From positions 83,665 through 147,664 of the forward strand of contig CAZULJ010000002.1 in the NCBI GenBank assembly GCA_964621195.1: a stretch of 64,000 nucleotides of DNA, in the 5' to 3' direction. The position numbers and the translations under genes were made by a program. The stretch is from an uncultured Candidatus Saccharibacteria bacterium. GTDB taxonomy: Bacteria > Patescibacteriota > Dojkabacteria > SC72. The notes beneath the pieces were generated by a model. That model worked only from the letters and a program-made list of their open reading frames with translations, did not search any database and had not been told where the DNA came from. Shown here one piece after another: positions 6,598 to 57,067 of this stretch. How positions within the stretch are numbered: the stretch's first letter is position 1; each line of letters starts with the position of its first letter.

Positions 6598-8469
6598 ATG
6601 AAGGTTATAGATATTTTCCAAAGGGTAGTTAATAGATTACCAATATATTTTACTCAGTTTAAAACCCTGGTTAAAAAGCAAGGACTATTTTTCACACTTA
6701 AAAAAGTTTTTAAGAAGATATTTAGGTTTGTTGTTAGTGGTGGTAAAGCATCAAAACTCTTAGATCTTACATATGGTGAATGGATGAGTAATGTTGAGAG
6801 TAAGTATCTAAACACAGAGAGTATGTTAGATGATTTAAAAGAACTCAAGGTTAAACCAAAGTTTAGTGTGATATTTCCTGTTTGGAATAAGTCTGAGGAT
6901 ATGCTTTCTGAGGCTCTGGACTCTATTGTGAACCAAGTTTATGAGAATTGGGAGATATGTATTTCAGATGGATCTACTAAGCGTGTAGAAGAGACTAGGG
7001 AGTTTTTAAGGGAGTTTCAGAGTAAGTACAAGGGCAAGGTTAAGTTCTCAACCATTGATGTAGAGGGTATCAATATTATTGAGAACAGTAACAAGGCTCT
7101 TTCTTTGGCAACTGGAGATTATGTTGTATTTATGGATTGTGATGATGAGATATCTGTTAATTGTTTACTTGAATTAGCTAAAAGTATTAATGAGAATCCT
7201 AAGGTCGAGTTCTTGTACAGTGATTTTGACAAGATAGATGAGAAGGGTAAGAGGTTTGATCCTTCTTTCTGGCCTGATTGGTCTCCACATACTTTAACTG
7301 CACAGATGTATACAACTCATGTAACTTGTTACAAAAAAGAAGTAGTAGAAGAGTTAGGTGGATTAGTTAAGGGTACGGAAGGTGCTCAGGATTGGGATTT
7401 AGTACTTAGGTATGTAACTAGAGGTAAGTGGAATGTAGTACATATTCCTAAGATTCTTTATCATTGGAGAGTGTATCCTGGTTCTACGGCATTGGCTAAT
7501 AGTGGTGCTAAGGATTGGGCGTATGAGAATCAAAGAAAGGTATTAGAGAGGTATTTAGAGAGAAGGAAGTTAAAGGGTAAGGTACTAGAGGGTCCTTTTG
7601 AGGGTAGCTGGAGAGTTAAGTTTGATATTAAAGATAATCCTAAAGTTAGTATTGTTATTCCTACTAAGGACAAGGTTGAGTATTTAAGTAAGGCTATAGA
7701 GAGTATTAAAGAGCATACTAAGTATGGTAACTATGAGATTGTGATTGTAAACAATAGGTCAGAGGAGGAAGAGACACTAGAGTATTTTAAGGAGATTAGT
7801 AAGGAAGAGAATATTAGAGTTATTGATTTTAATCAGCCTTTTCATTTTGGGAAGTTGTATAACTGGGCTAGTAAGGAAGTTGATGGTGAATATATGTTGA
7901 TACTTAATAATGATATTAAGGTGTTAAATGATGGTTGGTTAGAATCTATGTTAGAGTTTGGACAATTACCTGAGGTAGGTAGTGTAGGAGCTCGGTTATA
8001 CTATGAGGATGGTCGGATACAGCATGCGGGTGTAATTGTTGGTGCAGGGGGGGCTGCTGCACATAGTCATAGGTTATGTGATGGTAATGATTTTGGCTAC
8101 AATGGTGCTATTGTTAATGTTAGAAACTATTTAGCTGTTACTGGGGCTTGTGTAATGGTAAACAGAAAGAGGTTTATTGATATTGGTGGTTTTGATACTC
8201 AGTTTGATCCTGCTTATCAGGATGTAGATTTGGGTATTAGGCTTTATGAGATGGGTTTATACAATGTCTATACTCCTTATGCAGAACTTATACATTACGA
8301 ATCTATTACAAGATTTAGTACTAAGGAGAAGTTAGAAAGAGATGAGGAGAATGCACTAAAGTTAAGAAAGAGATGGCCACAATATATTGAATATATGGGT
8401 GGAGATGATCCGTTTTTTAATCCTAATTTTTCATATGCACATGAAGATTTTAGGATTAGAGCTGAGTAA
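6598..8469 (+). CDS. two-domain GT2 glycosyltransferase (tandem GT2 modules; O-antigen/teichoic-type chain-extending enzyme)
   Basis: 623 aa. First GT2 module FSVIFPVWNKSEDMLSEALDSIVNQVYENWEICISDGST...FMDCDDE; second module VSIVIPTKDKVEYLSKAIESIKEHTKYGNYEIVIVNN...LNNDIKV. Paralog of the gene at 14256..16109. Confidence 0.8.
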   Translation: MKVIDIFQRVVNRLPIYFTQFKTLVKKQGLFFTLKKVFKKIFRFVVSGGKASKLLDLTYGEWMSNVESKYLNTESMLDDLKELKVKPKFSVIFPVWNKSEDMLSEALDSIVNQVYENWEICISDGSTKRVEETREFLREFQSKYKGKVKFSTIDVEGINIIENSNKALSLATGDYVVFMDCDDEISVNCLLELAKSINENPKVEFLYSDFDKIDEKGKRFDPSFWPDWSPHTLTAQMYTTHVTCYKKEVVEELGGLVKGTEGAQDWDLVLRYVTRGKWNVVHIPKILYHWRVYPGSTALANSGAKDWAYENQRKVLERYLERRKLKGKVLEGPFEGSWRVKFDIKDNPKVSIVIPTKDKVEYLSKAIESIKEHTKYGNYEIVIVNNRSEEEETLEYFKEISKEENIRVIDFNQPFHFGKLYNWASKEVDGEYMLILNNDIKVLNDGWLESMLEFGQLPEVGSVGARLYYEDGRIQHAGVIVGAGGAAAHSHRLCDGNDFGYNGAIVNVRNYLAVTGACVMVNRKRFIDIGGFDTQFDPAYQDVDLGIRLYEMGLYNVYTPYAELIHYESITRFSTKEKLERDEENALKLRKRWPQYIEYMGGDDPFFNPNFSYAHEDFRIRAE

Positions 8470-14255: not shown

Positions 14256-16109
14256 TTAAACTAATATCTTAAAATCTTCAGATTTATTGCTTAAATTCTT
14301 GTTATAAAATTTATCATTCAAAATATTCTCTTCCCATTTTTCATATATTAAATCGATCTCTTTACTAAACTCATCGTTATCCCTGGTCTTCGCCTCTGGT
14401 GTACCTACTGAGATAGATTCGTGGTGATATAACTCTACATAGGGCGTATAGACATTGTAATATCCTTTCTTAAGTAATTTAAGACAAAAATCTACATCAT
14501 TGAATGCTATTCTAAAACTTTTCTCCAGACCTTTAACCTCTTCGTACTTCTTCTTACTTACCATTAGGCATGCAGCTGTAACAGCAGAGTAGTTTTTAAT
14601 AATATCTTTTTGAACGGGAAACCCTTGAATCTCCCTTGGAAAGAATTTAAAAGCATGTCCGGCAACACCTTTACCTGTACCCCCATTTATACCAAGTATT
14701 ACTCCTGCATGTTGAATTGTGTTATTGGGATAGAATAGTTTTACTCCGACAGCACCGACTTCTTCTCTTTGTGCATGTTCAAGCATTCCCTCTATCCAAT
14801 TGGGAGAGAGAACCTCTGTATCATTATTTAAAAGTACAATATATTCTCCTTTAGAATTCTTTACTCCAAAGTTATTCACTGCTGAATAGTTAAATTTCTC
14901 TTTCCATTCTAAAATTTTTATCCTACTATCTTGTTTTAAGTCTTCGTAATAATCCAAAACTTTTTGTTCTTTACTGCCAGTATCAATTATTATAATCTCA
15001 ATATTTTTGTATGTAGTTTTTTCAAGTAAGGAGGAAATACACCTCTCTATATATTCATATTTGTCTAGAGTAGGGATTAATATACTAACTAGGGGGGAGC
15101 CCTTAATTTTATATTTCACTCTAAAGGAACCTGGAAAGAGACCATCATATACTTCACCCTTTAGATTTCTTCTCTTTAAAGCATCTGCTAATGCTTTGAT
15201 AGTAGTTTCCTTTGCATATCCCTTATCTGAATATTCAGAAGAAGTTGAGCCTGGAATCTTTCTCCAAGAGTAGAGTACTTCTGGTATATGTTCAATCTTG
15301 TTTGTTTTTTCCGTTATTCTTAAAAAGAGATCATAGTCTTGAGAACCTTCATATCCTTTTCTAAAACCCCCAACTTCATCAACGAGCTTTTTTCTTATAA
15401 CTGAAAGGTGGGACATATAGTTTGTTGACATAAATAGATCTGGTGACCAATCGGGTTTGAAAAATGGTTCAACTCTTTTACCACTCATATCAATCTTATC
15501 CTCATCTGAATATATAAAGTCAGTATCTGGTTTCTCATTGAGCAACTTCACTACTTCTGCTAATGAATGTGGTTGTATTATGTCATCGTTATCCATTAGT
15601 GCAACATATTCTCCTTCTGCTAATTCTAATGCAGTATTAGATGCTTCGGATATATGTCCATTCTTTTTTCTAAAGGTAACTTTTATTCTAGGACTTTTAG
15701 AGATTCTATGAAGGTAGCTTATAAGCTTTGGATCTGTAGAAGCATCATCTGCTATGCATAGTTCCCAATTTGTATATATTTGTTTCTTTATTGATTTAAT
15801 AGCCTCTTTTATCCACTTAACATCAACATTGTATACGGGCATAATAATACTTATGAGGGGTTTGTATTCTAAGTTTCCTAATTCTTTTTTTATTTGAGAT
15901 CTTTTATTAAGAGTAATTTCATTTCTTTTTAACCAGTATTTGTATATATTTGTTTCTTTGTTTAGTTGTTTCCGATACTCGATTGTATGCCTTATTCTTT
16001 TAAAGATTCGTTTAAAAGTAATAATTGGACCATCTTTTATTATATTTATAAAAAAATTCTTAAAATATTTTTTTAACTTTTTCTTCATCATTACTCTTTT
16101 TTTATACAA
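14256..16109 (-). CDS. two-domain GT2 glycosyltransferase (paralog of 6598..8469)
   Basis: 617 aa. Module 1 LISIIMPVYNVDVKWIKEAIKSIKKQIYTNWELCIADDASTD...MDNDD; module 2 VSILIPTLDKYEYIERCISSLLEKTTYKNIEIIIIDTGS...LNNDTEV. Same architecture as the 623-aa protein with about 40% identity by eye. True start may be internal. Confidence 0.8.
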   Translation of the reverse strand: MYKKRVMMKKKLKKYFKNFFINIIKDGPIITFKRIFKRIRHTIEYRKQLNKETNIYKYWLKRNEITLNKRSQIKKELGNLEYKPLISIIMPVYNVDVKWIKEAIKSIKKQIYTNWELCIADDASTDPKLISYLHRISKSPRIKVTFRKKNGHISEASNTALELAEGEYVALMDNDDIIQPHSLAEVVKLLNEKPDTDFIYSDEDKIDMSGKRVEPFFKPDWSPDLFMSTNYMSHLSVIRKKLVDEVGGFRKGYEGSQDYDLFLRITEKTNKIEHIPEVLYSWRKIPGSTSSEYSDKGYAKETTIKALADALKRRNLKGEVYDGLFPGSFRVKYKIKGSPLVSILIPTLDKYEYIERCISSLLEKTTYKNIEIIIIDTGSKEQKVLDYYEDLKQDSRIKILEWKEKFNYSAVNNFGVKNSKGEYIVLLNNDTEVLSPNWIEGMLEHAQREEVGAVGVKLFYPNNTIQHAGVILGINGGTGKGVAGHAFKFFPREIQGFPVQKDIIKNYSAVTAACLMVSKKKYEEVKGLEKSFRIAFNDVDFCLKLLKKGYYNVYTPYVELYHHESISVGTPEAKTRDNDEFSKEIDLIYEKWEENILNDKFYNKNLSNKSEDFKILV

Positions 16110-37482: not shown

Positions 37483-39558
37483 ATGAAATATACTGCTGCC
37501 CTAAAATACATATTTCTCTTTCTTTTCACCCTTTTACTTGCACCAAATGTCTACTCACAAGGTTCATTTGAATCAATGCAGGAGGATGTAACTGTTGAGG
37601 CGAATATTACAGTTGATTTTTACTCTACAGTCAATGTTAATCCAATAACGGTAGAAATATATCAACCAAGTAATGTTGAGATAAGGGTACTATCACCTAG
37701 CGGATTGGGTATTCCTGGAAGGCAGATTGTAATACTTGCTCCTGGTTTAACGGTTACTCAACCTATTACCCTTACAAATGCGACTGGTAGAACGAACGGT
37801 TCTGTATATTCTGCTACCCCTGGTACATATACAGTGTGCGCAAAGGATACTACCTTTGGATATGATATTACGATTCAAAACTGTAGAACCTTGTATGTTG
37901 TGCCTGTCCCAATACCAAATATGTTACCGGAGCCTCAGTACACAAAGGGTTTGAGTAATATTGTTCTTTGGAGTAGCTTGGGTGCAAATTACACATACAA
38001 TGTTCAAGCGAGCGAATATTCCGATTTTAGTTCAGTATTAAGTGAATCTGGATATACCACAAACACATCCCATGAGTTTACTGGTTTAGAGGATGCCAAG
38101 ATGTATTTCTACAGAGTTCGTGCTCAAAATCAGTATGGTGGAACAGGTGCATGGTCTAATATCGTTTACAGCGTTCAGGACAATCAACCCCCAGTTATTG
38201 AAGTCCTAGATATTGGAGATGTAGGTCAAAATGATACTGTGAATTGGAGCAGTACTCATGTTGTTACAATGCTTTTTAGAGTTAGTGATAACCTTCAATT
38301 GGCGAGTACACAATTCTTCTGTCTTAATACTGGAGATAACCTAGTTGCATGTACAGATGATTACTCCTTCGAGGGGGATATTTTTACTGTTAATGTTAGA
38401 CTTGGTGATTTGGAGAGAATATCGGGTGTTTACCTTAAAGAGAGGTATGGGTTTTGTGTAGAGGCTAGTGATACAGCAACAAATATTACACGAGTATGTG
38501 ATATTTACCTTGATATTCCTAAAGGAGAGTATCCAGTAGAACCAGAGAACCCTCCAATTATTGATAGGATCGAGAAGGGTTTAGAGGATTTAGATGTAAT
38601 ACTTGATGATACAATTGGTCAATTGGATCCTAAGGATTTAGATCGTGTTACTACAACTACCTCTGTTGTGACTGCAACTTCTGCAATAGCTATCGCTGCT
38701 GGAGGTCTTGGTAGTTTGCCTTACTTCCTTCTTCAACTCTTCCTTAATCTTCTATCTTTACTTGGTTTTAGAAAGGGTGCTAAACCTGTGGGTTTTGTAT
38801 ATGATTCTGTTACAAAAGATCCAATATCACAAGCTATCGTTAGAATCTTTGATATGAACAATCGTATTGTATGGTCTGATGTAACAGATAGTAGGGGGTA
38901 TTTCAGTGCTAGATTAAAAGATGGTAGATACAGAATTTTAGTAAGGGCTCCTAGATATGCATTCCCTTCTAATGTTGTTTTTGGAAAAGAGGACTATCCT
39001 TTAACTAATGTATATCATGGTGAAGAGTTCGATATTACTTCCAATGTAGAAGCGAACTATGCAGTACCTATGGATCCTCTTGAAGTTTCGAAACTTCGTC
39101 TTTCATTGGAAACTTTCTGGGCTAGAATTAAATTCCTTGTTAATATGCTTCTCATAGTTTTATTCCTTTTAGGTTTGATATTTGCCTTCTATTCCTATTA
39201 CAACAATCCGTCCTTGTTCTCATTAATCGTATTACTCCTCTTTGTACCAACATTCTTCTTTATACTTAGAAACATATTAAGTAAAGTAGATGATTACGGT
39301 ATCGTAAGAAACAAAGAAGGTGAAAGACTTGAAGGAGTAGTTATTGGATTGAGAGAATCAGAGTTTGACAAGATAGTGGCGAAAAGGGTTACGGATATTA
39401 GGGGTAGGTATAGATTCTTTGTAGGTGAGGGTAGATACTATATTGAAATTTTAGATACTGGATACAGGGTTGAGGATATTGAAGATGGTGATGAGGTGTA
39501 TCTTAAGAAGGAGAGTTTGATTCAAAGGGATATAGTATTAACAAGGATAAAGAAGTGA
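37483..39558 (+). CDS. secreted cell-surface protein: signal peptide, Fn3-like domain(s), C-terminal membrane-anchor module shared with the 2286-aa protein
   Basis: 691 aa. Signal peptide MKYTAALKYIFLFLFTLLLAPNVYSQG; Fn3-like segment YTYNVQASEYSDFS...MYFYRVRAQNQYGGTGAWSN; Thr-rich linker, TM helix, LGFRKGAKPVGFVYDSVTKDPISQAIVRIFD (transthyretin/CarboxypepD_reg-like beta-sandwich), two further TM helices, second beta-sandwich with DKIVAKRVTDIRGRYRF. Confidence 0.6.
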   Translation: MKYTAALKYIFLFLFTLLLAPNVYSQGSFESMQEDVTVEANITVDFYSTVNVNPITVEIYQPSNVEIRVLSPSGLGIPGRQIVILAPGLTVTQPITLTNATGRTNGSVYSATPGTYTVCAKDTTFGYDITIQNCRTLYVVPVPIPNMLPEPQYTKGLSNIVLWSSLGANYTYNVQASEYSDFSSVLSESGYTTNTSHEFTGLEDAKMYFYRVRAQNQYGGTGAWSNIVYSVQDNQPPVIEVLDIGDVGQNDTVNWSSTHVVTMLFRVSDNLQLASTQFFCLNTGDNLVACTDDYSFEGDIFTVNVRLGDLERISGVYLKERYGFCVEASDTATNITRVCDIYLDIPKGEYPVEPENPPIIDRIEKGLEDLDVILDDTIGQLDPKDLDRVTTTTSVVTATSAIAIAAGGLGSLPYFLLQLFLNLLSLLGFRKGAKPVGFVYDSVTKDPISQAIVRIFDMNNRIVWSDVTDSRGYFSARLKDGRYRILVRAPRYAFPSNVVFGKEDYPLTNVYHGEEFDITSNVEANYAVPMDPLEVSKLRLSLETFWARIKFLVNMLLIVLFLLGLIFAFYSYYNNPSLFSLIVLLLFVPTFFFILRNILSKVDDYGIVRNKEGERLEGVVIGLRESEFDKIVAKRVTDIRGRYRFFVGEGRYYIEILDTGYRVEDIEDGDEVYLKKESLIQRDIVLTRIKK

Positions 39559-39613
39559 TTTGTATTGAAAAATCTTTAATCTACTGGTATTATTCTTTGT
39601 TTATATCTGAACT

Positions 39614-39686
39614 GGGTGTATAGCTCAATTGGTAGAGCAAACGGCTCTTAACCGTTAGGTTCAGGGTTCGAGCCCCTGTACACCCA
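39614..39686 (+). tRNA. tRNA-Lys (anticodon CUU), CCA not encoded
   Basis: Manual cloverleaf: acceptor GGGTGTA/TACACCC, D-arm GCTC-AATTGGTA-GAGC, anticodon stem AACGG/CCGTT with loop C-T-CTT-A-A (U33, A37), 5-nt variable loop, T-arm CAGGG-TTCGAGC-CCCTG, discriminator A. Confidence 0.9.
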
Positions 39687-39697
39687 TTTCCTCTTTT

Positions 39698-40177
39698 CTA
39701 GTGAACTATAAATGATTCTATGATAGGTTTAATATCTTCTGTATTATATTGAGGTTTAACTTTTACGACAAAAAGAGGTAGGCCAACATTTTTTAAAAGA
39801 ATATCAACAAAACTATCTCTTGTCTGTCTAGTAGGGTTTAAATGTGAAGATCCATTAAGTTCAATTACTGCTTTTATTTCAGAATTTTCATTATTTATTA
39901 GAACAAAATCAACGTGTTTAGCTATTACTCTGTTCTTATCACTTGTATAAGATTTTCCTTTCGATATTGGTTTTACAATATCAATTAGCCTAACTTTACA
40001 CATTATGGATATTGAAGAGGGAAGATTCTGAAAAAGAAATTTGTAAAAAGTTAGCTCTGAATGATTAAGTAGATATTGATTCTTTTGAAATTCAGGAACA
40101 GGTTCTTTTTTTAATAATTCGGCTATTATAAAAATGGCAATAAACAAAACAATTGGGATAATATAATATATTTCCAT
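39698..40177 (-). CDS. DUF2726-like PD-(D/E)xK nuclease-fold protein with N-terminal TM anchor
   Basis: 159 aa. N-terminal TM helix, then VDFVLINNENSEIKAVIELNGSSH, which matches the D...(I/V)ExxG..H core of DUF2726/PD-(D/E)xK proteins. Stop codon 11 bp from the tRNA 3' end. Confidence 0.5.
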   Translation of the reverse strand: MEIYYIIPIVLFIAIFIIAELLKKEPVPEFQKNQYLLNHSELTFYKFLFQNLPSSISIMCKVRLIDIVKPISKGKSYTSDKNRVIAKHVDFVLINNENSEIKAVIELNGSSHLNPTRQTRDSFVDILLKNVGLPLFVVKVKPQYNTEDIKPIIESFIVH

Positions 40178-40248
40178 GAGTCAAGTATACAAATACTAAA
40201 TATCGTGGTCAACGTTCATTAATCTTCTGATACTTTGCAGTATACTGT

Positions 40249-40282
40249 TTAGGTTCGACATCCATCCCTGGACCCCCATTTT
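40249..40282 (+). repeat. degenerate direct repeat of the tRNA-Lys 3' end (att-like remnant)
   Basis: TTAGGTTCgacatccaTCCCTGgACCCCCATTT vs tRNA 39655-39689 TTAGGTTCagggttcgagCCCCTGtACACCCATTT: identical first 8 nt and 14/17 matches over the last 17 nt. Confidence 0.35.
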
Positions 40283-40283
40283 G

Positions 40284-40736
40284 CTAGCTTATTGGTATAC
40301 TCTCTTTCTCTTGATAATCTTCTTGGAATATCAGTTCAGGGTTTTCCCTTAATTCATTGTATAGCTGTTCTCTCGTGTATTGCCTAATTTCTGTTGGTGT
40401 TTGCTCTTCTGTGCAGTACCACTCTCCTGACTCACGAATATATTCCCAATTACCTTCATCTTTAGAGAAGGTAAATATGTATACTGTCTCGTCCATCAAT
40501 TTCTGATCTGGACGGTCATAAAGCATAACCCTTAGTTTCTTGTTATCTTCTGAAGGGATCGTTCCGAAAGAACAGACTCCTCTTAGTGCTGCGAATATCT
40601 TGGCATTAATCTCAGAGTCAGACGCAAAAATTACTCCACTAGGAGTTGAGCTAGGAAATTTGTGAATGTCATCGGGGTGTACAGGTTGTGGTTGGAACGG
40701 ACTCATATGTAGTTTGCTTCCTTTGTAGAGATTCAT
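40284..40736 (-). CDS. hypothetical protein (orphan, elevated GC)
   Basis: 150-aa ORF. Codon composition noticeably GC-richer than the flanking genes. No recognizable motif. Confidence 0.4.
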   Translation of the reverse strand: MNLYKGSKLHMSPFQPQPVHPDDIHKFPSSTPSGVIFASDSEINAKIFAALRGVCSFGTIPSEDNKKLRVMLYDRPDQKLMDETVYIFTFSKDEGNWEYIRESGEWYCTEEQTPTEIRQYTREQLYNELRENPELIFQEDYQEKESIPIS

Positions 40737-40829
40737 TTATTCGAAATATTGCAAAATTAACTTTCTAAATTATACATAATTTGTTCTTCTATTCTTTACC
40801 AAGAACTTCCTTGTATGTAGAATATCATT

Positions 40830-41873
40830 ATGAATGGAGAAAAACCGTATGATCATAGTGATAACTATTTTAGGGAGGATGATAGCCCAAAACATTACGA
40901 TTCTCCCCTCTCAAGACGAACAATCAAAGAGGTTATTTCGCAAGAGAATAGCTTAAATTCCTCTGAGGATGACTTCCGTGCATCTGCGAATAAATCAAAA
41001 GAATTGTTACAACGTTACTATTCAGATCCTGCATACAGAGAATCATTAGAGGGTGCAAGGGCTTCTACGGATATCAGGGAGGGTGAAAAGTCTCCCCTCC
41101 TTATCTGTGAGGACGGTATCATTAGGAGTCGCGAGCATGCGAAGAATACTAATGGTGTCTATCTTCCTGGGGGATCCTCTCAAAGACTTGGGTATGGCCC
41201 TAAAGACATTCTTTCTGAGTCTACACCTTGGCTTCATATGTTTAGTGGTATTGAGTTTCGAAGCAACGCACAGGACCGATATTCAAAAGAACTTATAAGG
41301 TACTTAGGTGGAGTAATACCTATTGTTGTTCATGGGGAGGTAATTTCGGATAGAGTTTTAGAAAGGATTGAGATATCTGACAAATTGAGAGAAAGATTAC
41401 AAAGTACAGAAGCAGGACGCTTGATGCTTTCTTTATGTACCGTTTTACCAGCGGATATCATATCGTTGATTGAACTTGAAGATGATGTGCTATTAACCCC
41501 CAAGGAACCTACAAAAATGAAAGAAACCAAACCTAATAGAAATATATATTTCTTATCTATGAATAGCGGAGCCTTTGCTGTTAATCCCTCTGGCGTAGAA
41601 GAAACTAATTCTCTTACCCAACCATATTGTTTGAGGGATATTGTTAATCAGTATACTGAACAAATAGAAAAAGAGGGAGGTATTCCAGGAGATGGATGGG
41701 AACCTAGAAATACTGCATATGGAACAGTTGTCATGTTTGGAAATGCTGTCTTAGAGGAAGTCTTTGGGAATGGAAGATCTTTTGAAGACATCGAGGAAAA
41801 AGATCGTTTTCTTAATATCTTAATTGGAAAATATATTGCCCTAAAAGAAAGAAGCATGGTTGTTGAGTCTTAA
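40830..41873 (+). CDS. hypothetical protein (orphan, elevated GC)
   Basis: 347-aa ORF divergent from the preceding gene, GC around 42% by eye vs about 33% around. No recognizable catalytic motif. 3' end overlaps the elp3-like gene by 4 bp. Confidence 0.4.
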   Translation: MNGEKPYDHSDNYFREDDSPKHYDSPLSRRTIKEVISQENSLNSSEDDFRASANKSKELLQRYYSDPAYRESLEGARASTDIREGEKSPLLICEDGIIRSREHAKNTNGVYLPGGSSQRLGYGPKDILSESTPWLHMFSGIEFRSNAQDRYSKELIRYLGGVIPIVVHGEVISDRVLERIEISDKLRERLQSTEAGRLMLSLCTVLPADIISLIELEDDVLLTPKEPTKMKETKPNRNIYFLSMNSGAFAVNPSGVEETNSLTQPYCLRDIVNQYTEQIEKEGGIPGDGWEPRNTAYGTVVMFGNAVLEEVFGNGRSFEDIEEKDRFLNILIGKYIALKERSMVVES

Positions 41874-43465
41874 AGATCTTTCTTCATATAGAGTTTTTCA
41901 TCCTTAAACCCTCTCTTTCTATAGTACTCCCTTGTTCCTATTGCAGATATCACAGAAAGGCTAAGATAATTCTCTTTTTTTGCAATATCTTCTGCAATTT
42001 GAATCATCTTTTTACCAAGACCCAAATGTTGTGATTCACCAGAACTATTTTCACCAATATTAACTAAAGAACCGTATACATGTACCTCCCTTATCATTGC
42101 ACTACCTTTTATTTCATCTAGAAAAGAATCTTTTTTTGGTAGTGATAATCTTAGGAATGAGCATATCCTATCAGTAATTTTAGTTTTGTAAGATATGAAA
42201 TATTCTTTAGAAACGGTAGTCTCATACTCTATTACTTCTAAATCTAAATCTTCCCACCTAGCTACTTCATCCTTTATCTCTCTACTTCTAATATCCTCGA
42301 TATTCTTTCCCAAGCTTTCAATTTCTTTCTCTGCTATCTGTCTAAAGTTTGTACTTTTGTTTCCATCAATAATCTCATTAGAGGGAATATCTCTCACTAT
42401 TCTTGTTAATCTACAATACCTAGGAGTAGAGGGTAGAATATTTACAAACAATGTTAGTAATTCTTCTCTTGTGTACGGTTTGTATTTACCCTCTCTGTAA
42501 TATTTTTCTAGTATGGTATTTTCAATGATTGAAGTAGGGTAGATCTTAAGTTCATCGGGAATATATTCTTTGTTCCAGAGTTTTTTGTAATCTTGTATAT
42601 CTTTTTCTACAGAGGATCCATATAGATTTGGCATCCAATGTGCGTGTATTTTAAATCCTGCTAATCTAAGTAATTCAAATGCTTTTTTGGTTTCCTTTAT
42701 TGTATGTCCTCTCCTATTTAATTCTAGTATTTCGTTATCTAGACTCTGTATACCTATTTGTATTTTTGTTGCACCAAGTTTTCTTAATCTGATTATTTCC
42801 TCTTCTGTTATGTAATCAGGTCTAGTTTCAAGTACTAGACCAACATTTCTACATACGGTTGTTTCATTTATTCTTTGTGATTCAAAGAGATCTTCCCAAG
42901 ATATATTCTCTATACCCCTATCGTCTGAATAGTTGGTATTTCCGAAGCTATTCATTGCATCAAAACATCTTTTTACAAACCATATGATGTACTGTTCTGG
43001 ATAGAAGGAACATGTTCCTCCAAGTATTATTAACTCTATCTTGTCTGTATTATGTCCAATGTTTTGTAATGCCTTTATACGATTGTATGTTTGATTGAAG
43101 GGGTCAAATTCATTCTTTAAAGCTCTCTGTGCCCCTGGTTCACTAGAGATATATGATTTAGGCATATTCATATCATTTGGGCAGAATATACACTGTCCTG
43201 GGCATGCAAAGGGCTTCATGAGTACAGTGACAGTAGCTACCCCAGACTGAGTTCTAGTAGGTTTCATCCTAATTCTTTCCTCTATCTTTTTGTTAGGAAT
43301 GACATCTTTGTCACTTACCAATCTCTTGTACATTTCTACTAACTCATCGTGCCTATACAACCCCTTACCATCTTTGGGATATCTCTTAAGTATTGTTTGA
43401 AGGGAGTTCTCTCTCCATGTTTTTGTATTTTCTATTTGTTCAAAAATCTCTTTGAAATCTTGCAT
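41870..43465 (-). CDS. elp3: Elp3-like radical SAM + GNAT enzyme (tRNA wobble uridine carboxymethyl-modification family)
   Basis: 531 aa. KPTRTQSGVATVTVLMKPFACPGQCIFCPN (radical-SAM C-x3-C-x2-C in the Elp3 context), central TIM-barrel region, C-terminal GNAT with QHLGLGKKMIQIAEDIA acetyl-CoA binding motif. Confidence 0.8.
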   Translation of the reverse strand: MQDFKEIFEQIENTKTWRENSLQTILKRYPKDGKGLYRHDELVEMYKRLVSDKDVIPNKKIEERIRMKPTRTQSGVATVTVLMKPFACPGQCIFCPNDMNMPKSYISSEPGAQRALKNEFDPFNQTYNRIKALQNIGHNTDKIELIILGGTCSFYPEQYIIWFVKRCFDAMNSFGNTNYSDDRGIENISWEDLFESQRINETTVCRNVGLVLETRPDYITEEEIIRLRKLGATKIQIGIQSLDNEILELNRRGHTIKETKKAFELLRLAGFKIHAHWMPNLYGSSVEKDIQDYKKLWNKEYIPDELKIYPTSIIENTILEKYYREGKYKPYTREELLTLFVNILPSTPRYCRLTRIVRDIPSNEIIDGNKSTNFRQIAEKEIESLGKNIEDIRSREIKDEVARWEDLDLEVIEYETTVSKEYFISYKTKITDRICSFLRLSLPKKDSFLDEIKGSAMIREVHVYGSLVNIGENSSGESQHLGLGKKMIQIAEDIAKKENYLSLSVISAIGTREYYRKRGFKDEKLYMKKDL

Positions 43466-55848: not shown

Positions 55849-57067
55849 TGCAAATCCTTTTTTACCTGCTCTTCCTGTTCTACCTATTCTATGTATGTAA
55901 TCATCGTAATTTTCTGGCATATCGTAGTTTATTACATGTGTAATATTGTTAACGTCTAAGCCTCTTGATGCTACATCTGTTGCAATTAAGATATTTATTT
56001 GGTCTTTCTTAAAGGCATCTATGATTCTTGATCTTTGTGCTTGTCTTTTATCTCCGTGTAGAGCATTTACCCTAACACCAGTTTCATACAATTTCTTTGA
56101 AAGAGATTCTGCCTCTCTTTTTGTTCTTGTAAAGATTAAGACCTTTTTAAAATCATCTTTCTTTATATATTGAGAGAGTTACTCCAAATTTGTTCTCTCC
56201 TTCTTTGAGTCTAATGACATCTTGATCTACATTCTTACCTGGAGCCTGTTTCTCTACCTCTATCCTTACTGGGTTCTTTAAAAGTGTGTTCGCAATCTCT
56301 TCTGATTTTCTATTCATAGTTGCAGAAAAGAAAAGTGATTGTCTATTTTCGTTTAAGCGGGAAGTTATATACCTAATATCGTCAATGAATACCATATCTA
56401 ACATTCTATCTACTTCATCTAATATGACATTGTTTATATCCTTTAGGTATATAGCACCCCTCTCTGAAACATCCTTTAATCTACCTGGTGTTGCAATTAC
56501 AAATGCTGGATCTCTTCTTAATATCCCAATTTGTGCTCCTATGCTATTTCCACCAATTATTAATACTGATCTAAGTCCTGTATTTCTTGCTAATTGCATA
56601 AATTCATCTTGTATTTGCATTGCAAGCTCTCTTGTTGGAACTACTATTAAAAATCTTTGAGACCTATCCTGTACACCTTTGTTTATCATTGGTATGAGGA
56701 AGGCTGCTGTTTTACCAGAGCCTGTACTTGCTAATCCTAAGATATCTTTTCCTTTTAGTATTTTTGGAATGGCTTCGTGCTGAATCTTGGTAGGGCTTGT
56801 ATACTTTTTAAAAGTAATATTCTTTTTAAGCTCCTTTACCAAGTTAAGTTCTAAAAGATTGTGATCTAATACATATATACTTGGTAGATCTTCGTATACA
56901 GCTTTTGCTATTAGCTGGTTTACATTGATCCTAGTACCTCTTCTGTTATATCCACCGCCTCTTCTGCTATTGCTATATGAGGAGCTTCTATATGAAGGTC
57001 TTCTTCTACTGTTATTTCTATTGTAACGGTCATTATGGTCGTAATTTCTTCTGGAAGTGTTTTCCAT
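55834..57067 (-). pseudogene. DEAD-box ATP-dependent RNA helicase interrupted by a frameshift near 56160-56172
   Basis: N-terminal ORF 56153..57067 carries Q-motif, Walker A ASTGSGKTAAF, PTRELA, DEVD, SAT. C-terminal ORF 55834..56091 carries ALHGD, ILIATDVASRGLD, HRIGRTGRAGKKG. Manual retranslation shows the helicase continues in the +1 frame from ...YKE as KDDFKKVLIFTRTKREAESLSKKLYETGVRV.... N-terminal 60 aa is an Arg/Ser/Asn-rich low-complexity extension. Confidence 0.75.

Follow-up and report, generated by a model that had tools for sequence, protein, structure and literature searches.

Why is the 3′ end of a tRNA gene present twice, on either side of a single gene, in the chromosome of a member of Candidatus Dojkabacteria? 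The question is raised by a 64-kb stretch of AT-rich DNA (35% GC), here called the window and assigned by its closest relatives to Candidatus Dojkabacteria (WS6), in which the gene for tRNA-Lys(CTT) is followed on its 3′ side by four genes: a DUF2726 gene (159 aa), orf150, orf347 and an ELP3-like gene. The original prediction, made from the letters of the window, had taken this arrangement for the remnant of a tRNA-targeted integration which delivered accessory cargo. We compared the window with loci and contigs from related genomes or metagenomes (L001-L104) and conclude that the tRNA-Lys(CTT) 3′ end is probably the attachment (att) site of small integrative elements, and that the DUF2726 module of the window is best explained as an att-flanked remnant which has no integrase. 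The prediction thus stands for the DUF2726 gene as cargo and for the repeat as an attR-like scar, but not for orf150 and orf347 as genes delivered together with it. The arrangement was found in two independent public assemblies with 99.7-99.97% identity to the window.

The first copy of the repeat spans 35 nt, from the variable loop of the tRNA to three bases past its end, and the second lies beyond the DUF2726 gene. Realignment reproduced both the partial duplication and the counts given for it: identity is complete over the first 8 nt, and the final block agrees in 14 of 16 positions (14/17 with the next base). Under stringent, ungapped-like scoring only this 16-nt block aligned, and its score of 22 was equalled or exceeded elsewhere in the window; under gapped scoring over the whole 35 nt, the second copy was the single best match in 128 kb (the 64-kb window, both strands). 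Dinucleotide-preserving shuffles of the 2.2-kb interval reached the score of the repeat in 2 of 2000 cases (p about 0.001), those of its first 700 nt in 0 of 2000, so that the repeat stands above shuffled controls. The two copies bracket exactly one gene, as had been predicted, the DUF2726 gene being the sole open reading frame (ORF) between them. Taken alone, this evidence for a real repeat is suggestive. The decisive support is comparative, namely the recurrence of the same repeat in the same relative place in many related genomes.

A scan for ELP3 with one genome per species gave about 20 Dojkabacteria loci. These revealed a conserved frame composed of RecO, a 691-aa surface protein, tRNA-Lys(CTT), ELP3 and a flavoprotein, with the tRNA in the same frame across all related loci and the 691-aa protein beside it in about 20 of them (32-77% identity). 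Within this frame, the gap between tRNA and ELP3 is hypervariable and measures 16 nt in L011, 72 nt in L046, 122 nt in L020, 0.4-2.5 kb in others, 4.8 kb in L007 and 6.5 kb in L010. Its gene content varies as well and includes orf150 homologs, DUF5680, membrane proteins, NUDIX, winged helix-turn-helix (wHTH)-NUDIX, NADAR, a PIG-L deacetylase and large unknown proteins.

Copies of the repeat in other genomes were found by aligning the tRNA end of each locus to its own interval, which gave matches above all background in several genomes, followed by a metagenome scan and protein-context look-ups. An identical 19-30-mer recurs at the homologous place in 12 other loci. The metagenome scan with the 19-mer returned eight matches, five of them chance hits in high-GC contigs and three genuine Dojkabacteria-like loci. 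Altogether, the ~35-nt repeat (AAAAAGGTTCGACATCCATCCCTGYACACCCATTT) is present at at least 13 independent loci, with one to four copies per locus that separate single genes: the window, L001 (weak), L007, L009, L017 (2), L043, L082, L085 (4), L086 (2), L090 (2), L096 (2), L102 and L104. It lies 3′ of tRNA-Lys and in the orientation of the tRNA wherever the contig includes the tRNA. Elsewhere in 859 kb of low-GC DNA no other match of that strength was detected except a tRNA-Lys gene itself.

The displaced copies, which we call scars, have a consensus of their own, AAAAAGGTTCGACATCCATCCCTG[T/C]ACACCCA(CCA)TTT, and consist of two halves. The right half, CCCTGGACCCCCATTT in the window, is the displaced and mutated tRNA 3′ end. 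The left half, GGTTCGACATCCAT, is an element-type sequence common to all copies in the other genomes; it is unlike the T arm of the tRNA, yet it is conserved as well as the tRNA-like half across distant genomes. Two weak matches to the scar consensus occur on the + strand of the window, far from any tRNA, at 14649-14688 (score 40) and 56649-56680 (score 39); compared with the scores of the real scar (56) and of the tRNA itself (41), both are probably due to chance. The densest array found is that of a metagenomic contig without a tRNA (L085:44-2468), where four scars lie within 2.5 kb at start-to-start distances of about 236, 1196 and 958 nt and separate a NUDIX gene plus a 186-aa ORF, a 270-aa membrane protein and a 54-aa ORF.

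Comparison of empty with occupied sites, a check that turned out positive, reveals what happened at the junctions. In L002, L006, L086, L100 and L104, the orf150 stop codon lies 1-5 nt from the true 3′ end of the tRNA, which represents the empty site. In the window, L096 and L102, orf150 ends 1-3 nt from the repeat, and an insert is located between repeat and tRNA. The scar/orf150 junctions of the latter three are homologous to the tRNA/orf150 junctions of the former five, which indicates that the window was derived from a state with tRNA next to orf150 by insertion of the DUF2726 module. In L011, L046 and L020, the tRNA almost touches ELP3. A CCA is encoded in the displaced copy of L102 (...CACCCAccatt) and likewise in the tRNA of the empty-site relative L002, whereas the resident tRNA of L102 has none; this pattern is the signature of an insertion of Campbell type whose crossover lay within the tRNA gene.

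The order of genes around the scars is not constant. L102 reads tRNA–DUF5680–scar–orf150 and L104 reads tRNA–orf150–scar–DUF5680; similarly, L009 shows tRNA–DUF5680–scar–215-aa membrane protein and L082 shows tRNA–216-aa membrane protein–scar–DUF5680. Longer series are found in L017 (tRNA–DUF2726–scar–NUDIX-wHTH–scar–further genes) and L090 (tRNA–DUF5680–scar–Lycopene_cyc-like–scar–orf347 homolog–ELP3). Such permutation cannot have arisen by differential loss from a single fixed ancestral order; it agrees with elements inserting one after another at the tRNA end, followed by decay and excision. L086 carries a tRNA-Trp after its first scar (L086:6498-6574), and its synteny past the scar is unlike the plain succession of orf150 and ELP3 in L001, L002 and L102.

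One bracket holds an element that looks intact. Between tRNA-Lys and the scar beside orf150, L096, a contig seen in two samples, contains 5.8 kb of DNA encoding a large serine recombinase, a rolling-circle Rep, DUF3892, an N6_N4 DNA methylase, a 174-aa ORF next to the methylase with a weak PD-(D/E)xK signal and a 276-aa unknown protein. The recombinase gene lies at the end of the element next to the attachment site, and its product shares no more than 28% identity with any recombinase in GenBank phage records. It shares with the enzymes of the phiC31/Bxb1/A118 type the Resolvase, Recombinase and Zn-ribbon architecture and the position at the element end; unlike the elements of that type, this one is only 5.8 kb long, carries Rep and has no virion genes. 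As a rule, large serine recombinases insert into protein-coding genes, and it is tyrosine integrases that typically use tRNA genes. The recombinase ORF overlaps tRNA-Lys (c13319-13393) at L096:13319-13345, its last eight codons (MGVQGLEP*) being the reverse complement of the tRNA 3′ end, so that integration and excision would swap the C-terminal tail of the enzyme. After excision the ORF would continue into the left arm of the scar, read as its reverse complement, and this may explain the conservation of the arm. All scar variants, when reverse-complemented, are free of stop codons in the recombinase frame (MGVQ-xx-MSNL).

These observations can be joined in one mechanism. The tRNA-Lys(CTT) 3′ end of Dojkabacteria would be a chromosomal attachment site for small elements moved by a large serine recombinase, and a serine-recombinase element is likely the agent of the insertions at this hotspot. 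Each insertion would rebuild the tRNA with element-borne sequence and shift the former 3′ end beyond the insert, where it would be joined to an arm that stems from the element (AAAAAGGTTCGACATCCAT...). Through repeated rounds of insertion, excision and decay, an array of attR-like scars would then arise between tRNA and ELP3, separating single genes or small sets whose identity and order vary by genome. For the window, the ancestral state would have been tRNA–orf150–(orf347)–ELP3, and a DUF2726 module with its own promoter would have entered the tRNA end to give tRNA–DUF2726–scar–orf150. A module that has both att sites and no recombinase would be a remnant resembling a cis-mobilizable element (CIME), or possibly a cassette moved in trans. 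We infer that the scar of the window was made by a recombinase of the L096 family; the position of the crossover, the origin of the 0.56-kb module (by decay, or inserted as such) and the role of its cargo are inferred in the same way.

Several results weigh against this explanation. A phmmer search for recombinases in the 64-kb window and within 10 kb of the other loci found none except that of L096, the only recombinase-bearing intact occupant found; five more context look-ups of orf150 family members brought no further intact element. Hin and E. coli XerD served as seeds, and every ORF in the window and in the low-GC loci was searched with them. The Hin seed detected the L096 recombinase and no serine recombinase in the window, in agreement with the prediction that no integrase remains there; the XerD seed, whose sensitivity is not validated, matched nothing anywhere, so that tyrosine recombinases are not rigorously excluded. 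Beyond the att sites, the L096 element and the window module have no common sequence, and the flank just 3′ of the window tRNA (TTTCCTCTTTTCTAG) is unlike the recombinase end of L096; simple decay of the L096 element is thereby not demonstrated. The scar sequence and degenerate forms of it were sought in three scans of IMG/VR viral contigs, which gave no match to a free or viral form; a scan for relatives of the L096 recombinase found none either. Inverted half-site symmetry in the reconstructed attP/attB reached 8/18 at best, which is not above expectation and leaves the crossover point undefined. Finally, the DUF2726 proteins of the window and L017 have diverged (67% aa identity) about as far as core genes, which makes the insertion old, and the patchy distribution of DUF2726 could result from losses instead of mobility.

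That the units are single genes, the site is conserved and the order is permuted would also suit a different model, in which the locus is an integron-like cassette platform: single-gene modules (about 0.5-1 kb), each with one ~35-bp site mimicking the tRNA 3′ end, would be taken up, cut out and reshuffled in trans at the tRNA gene by a large serine recombinase whose gene lies on another small replicon or element. We regard this as a possibility worth keeping, though a doubtful one. The locus shares with integron arrays the single-gene units parted by a repeated recombination site, the one fixed anchor and a content and order that vary between strains. It differs from them in that no IntI tyrosine recombinase, attI or Pc is adjacent, that the anchor is a tRNA gene and the DUF2726 cassette has its own promoter, and that the repeat is unstructured where integron attC is a foldable imperfect palindrome.

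It is unlikely that the locus is a hotspot of homologous recombination, at which alleles are replaced via the conserved flanks (the 691-aa gene plus tRNA on one side, ELP3 on the other). The repeats would then be inert relics of ancient integrations, one or a few in number, that were passed on by vertical descent and gained or lost copies through unequal crossing-over, and DUF2726 would never have been a mobile unit. The near-absence of integrases is as expected from this model, and so is the restriction of all three cargo families to this locus and lineage; the identity of DUF2726 between window and L017 is comparable to that of RecO (73%), and the scars of the window and L043 share a derived substitution, ACCCCCA, suggesting that the scar itself was inherited. 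Relics of this kind are difficult to reconcile with an element-type left arm that is conserved in distant genomes as well as the tRNA-like right arm, with the live-looking integrase element in the bracket of L096, with the permuted gene order and with the CCA on the displaced copy of L102, a direct Campbell-type signature.

Very little speaks for the view that the second copy is a pseudogene, namely the decayed 3′ end of a duplicated tRNA-Lys, with the intervening genes arriving later by unrelated means. The right half of the repeat is clearly tRNA-derived and some copies carry an encoded CCA; against a pseudogene, no trace of a tRNA 5′ half was found upstream of any copy, the left arm conserved among the copies is unlike the tRNA, a stretch of 2.5 kb can contain as many as four copies, and one bracket contains an integrase element. 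Highly improbable, too, is a functional cis-element in place of a scar (a terminator, a processing signal or a folded site like attC): the repeat is intergenic and conserved, but it does not fold (no hairpin; minimum free energy 0 to -2.4 kcal/mol, z-scores above 0 against shuffles), its orientation tracks the tRNA and not the neighbouring genes on either strand, and it is confined to one locus. Chance similarity within a native gene order, for which one might cite the stringent scoring and the many chance repeats of 15-25 nt in AT-rich DNA, is refuted by the shuffle test, the unique gapped match and the 19-30-mer shared with 12 other loci.

The cargo of the window module matches Pfam DUF2726 (PF10881) over nearly the whole domain (profile positions 2-123 of 126; E=4e-25; 88.4 bits against a cutoff of 24.7) and also PHROG 14167, a phage protein family without known function (E=1.7e-15). 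The protein has, as predicted, a membrane anchor; it is N-terminal and visible as one strongly hydrophobic segment at residues 3-21 with a Kyte-Doolittle 19-residue mean of 2.59. By eye, the residues VDF ... IELNGSSH can be recognised; window and L017 both read ELN where we take the family consensus to be ELD. Among the loci, L017 holds the sole DUF2726 ortholog, in the same place and orientation and with a scar after the gene. No solved homolog was found by sequence, and PADLOC-DB v2 gave no match at E<=0.01 for DUF2726, orf150 or orf347. DUF2726 was described as a restriction-endonuclease-fold domain that is fused to AbiJ N-terminal domains elsewhere (PMC3710099), and members of the family were reported to occur near mobile elements and to have undergone multiple transfers (PMC3424549). 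The window protein shares the complete domain with this family and differs from it as a stand-alone domain with a membrane anchor and no partner gene. The suggested defence or abortive-infection role finds indirect support in this fold and these fusions and in the DNA methylase that L096 encodes beside its weak PD-(D/E)xK-like ORF. A role of the cargo in conflict or defence is plausible, and DUF2726 would possibly be a membrane-anchored, conflict-related protein of nuclease fold.

The two genes beyond the scar were predicted to be orphans without recognisable domains and of clearly higher GC content than their surroundings. The absence of domains was borne out by Pfam, PADLOC and PHROGs. The GC content is raised only modestly: orf150 ranks 3/55 among the window genes (0.397, z=1.3) and orf347 5/55 (0.387, z=1.0). 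The true outlier is the DUF2726 gene, which has the lowest GC content of the 55 (0.267, z=-2.3; 0.15 at third codon positions, z=-2.5). Neither gene proved to be an orphan, and homologs of both occur in the context of the same locus. For orf150, a profile search found 32 clusters in the protein collection, all of about 150 aa and without a Pfam domain; homologs with 43-58% identity occupy the same interval in many Dojkabacteria, and every context of the family that was examined is the tRNA-Lys/ELP3 locus. Judging from these contexts, orf150 is an older resident neighbour of the tRNA and not cargo of the DUF2726 insertion.

A Pfam scan of the orf150 protein and of all 29 rows of its alignment yielded noise only, and a profile search of the PDB gave no match. 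Its AlphaFold model has a mean predicted local distance difference test (pLDDT) score of 90.8, and its 11 top-scoring PDB matches are without exception ADP-ribosyltransferase (ART) toxins (TreX/TreTu, cholera toxin A, CARDS), at non-significant values (E 0.17-1.3; template modelling (TM) scores 0.34-0.44); an ART-toxin-like fold of orf150 may serve as a lead only. NADAR or NUDIX genes occur at the same hotspot in L043:13445-13915, L009:8182-8877 and L085:404-820 and, together with the ART-like matches of orf150, may point to a cargo theme of NAD and ADP-ribose.

The family of orf347 is very rare. A word-indexed protein search gave no match, and an exhaustive HMMER search of 1.84 billion representatives found two full-length homologs (39% and 32% identity) and a fragment of orf347 itself. 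The homolog in L090-L092 lies within the same tRNA-Lys frame and converges on a gene with the radical-SAM domains of ELP3; that in L089 converges on a truncated 331-aa ORF, presumably ELP3. The predicted structure comprises a disordered N-terminal stretch of 85 residues and a confidently predicted alpha/beta core, for which Foldseek found no match in PDB or BFVD (best TM score 0.19) and a PDB profile search none either. Both orf150 and orf347 are genuine genes that have long resided at the locus, neither of them being cargo of the DUF2726 insertion. The convergent orf347 and ELP3 genes overlap by 4 nt at their ends (window:41870-41873), which leaves no room for a terminator between them. The -10 boxes of the DUF2726 and orf347 genes end 6 nt before the start codons, suggesting leaderless transcripts. 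The coordinates of these features are compiled in Table 1.

Table 1. Features of the tRNA-Lys(CTT) locus in the window and recombinase gene of the intact element in L096
Feature	Position	Strand	Description and basis
Upstream frame gene	37483..39558	+	691-aa membrane/surface protein with CarboxypepD_reg domains; Pfam; outside the insert
Promoter-like site 5′ of tRNA-Lys	39565..39593	+	TTGAAA-17-TATTAT, with TG; consensus scan, pattern match only
tRNA-Lys(CTT)	39613..39687	+	Putative integration target; 3′ part would be attL when occupied; ARAGORN
Repeat copy 1	39655..39689	+	Variable loop, T arm, 3′ acceptor strand and TTT of the tRNA; TTAGGTTCAGGGTTCGAGCCCCTGTACACCCATTT; alignment
DUF2726 gene	39698..40177	-	Bracketed putative cargo gene, 159 aa, PD-(D/E)xK / Vsr-like fold; only ORF between the repeat copies
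Promoter-like site of DUF2726 gene	40184..40212	-	TTGACC-17-TATACT; pattern scan; stretch perfectly conserved between window and L017
Repeat copy 2	40249..40282	+	Putative attR-like scar; TTAGGTTCGACATCCATCCCTGGACCCCCATTTT; alignment and comparison with other genomes
orf150	40284..40736	-	Dojkabacteria-specific 150-aa family; B' flank; stop codon 1 nt from the scar
Promoter-like site of orf347	40795..40823	+	TTTACC-17-TAGAAT, 6 nt before ATG; pattern match only
orf347	40830..41873	+	Very rare family, 347 aa; convergent with ELP3
Downstream frame gene	41870..43465	-	ELP3-like radical-SAM/GNAT protein; Pfam; synteny anchor; outside the insert
Large serine recombinase	L096 11771-13345		524 aa; Resolvase (E=2e-29), Recombinase, Zn_ribbon_recom; PHROG 95 integrase (E=3e-74)

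Other occupants of the interval deserve mention. Several genomes (L001:3347-4291, L011:4362-5339, L039:6293-7279, L043:2981-4018 and L003:3314-4243) carry, upstream of ELP3, a paralog of the 691-aa protein that corresponds to its C-terminal half (36-38% identity). The larger intervals of three genomes share a conserved set of large proteins without Pfam domains, of about 600 and 727 aa, one of them a multi-pass membrane protein (L010:13347-17344, L017:4609-7855 and L086:1716-3896). L007 contains two tandem ORFs for 277-aa membrane proteins (6715-7548 and 7600-8433) with identical first 60 residues, and the family to which they belong, with the N-terminal motif PLSELISS(I/V)EQ, has members adjoining ELP3 in many loci.

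Att-flanked remnants at a tRNA hotspot are a known kind of feature, which is documented here in a little-studied lineage of the candidate phyla radiation (CPR). The closest likeness is offered by streptococci, in which CIMEs that are att-flanked and integrase-less, and tandem accretion of integrative and conjugative or integrative and mobilizable elements, were described at the tRNA-Lys(CTT) 3′ end (PMC5704250). Common to both systems are an att-flanked segment without integration genes at the 3′ end of the same tRNA gene, tandem segments separated by att sites and an autonomous relative at the same site, and the window module, like a CIME, has kept attL and attR and lacks integration and transfer genes. 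They differ in the host, here a member of the CPR, in the segments, which are mostly single genes of about 0.55 kb with putative mobilisation in cis, and in the enzyme: streptococcal elements use a tyrosine integrase, whereas the only intact relative found here has a large serine recombinase, a rolling-circle Rep and no conjugation genes. Islands seeded by tRNA genes, with arrays separated by partial tRNAs, were reported for the tycheposons of Prochlorococcus (bioRxiv 10.1101/2020.12.28.424599). These, too, are hypervariable islands at a fixed tRNA-adjacent place in a streamlined genome, where newer integrations push older ones inward and leave partial tRNA copies and degenerate, mostly integrase-less remnants. 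Tycheposons employ tyrosine recombinases and carry multi-gene cargo; the Dojkabacteria islet measures 0 to 6.5 kb, its scars have a conserved arm not derived from the tRNA and one element has a serine recombinase.

The genomes of CPR bacteria, or Patescibacteria, are very small, and little has been charted of the mobile elements of these bacteria or of the routes by which their genes are exchanged. The locus described here provides a sequence-defined integration hotspot with a conserved att sequence and clear empty and occupied alleles, as well as a candidate recombinase of a kind prized for genome engineering, in this case with a natural tRNA target. The lineage-restricted families orf150, orf347 and DUF5680 and the membrane-anchored DUF2726 nuclease, which would travel through this site, are candidates for functions in conflicts between host and episymbiont or with phages. 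If the locus were indeed a cassette platform, episymbionts with tiny genomes would have a dedicated place for swapping accessory and conflict genes such as the DUF2726 nuclease, DUF5680, the possibly ART-like orf150, NADAR and NUDIX.

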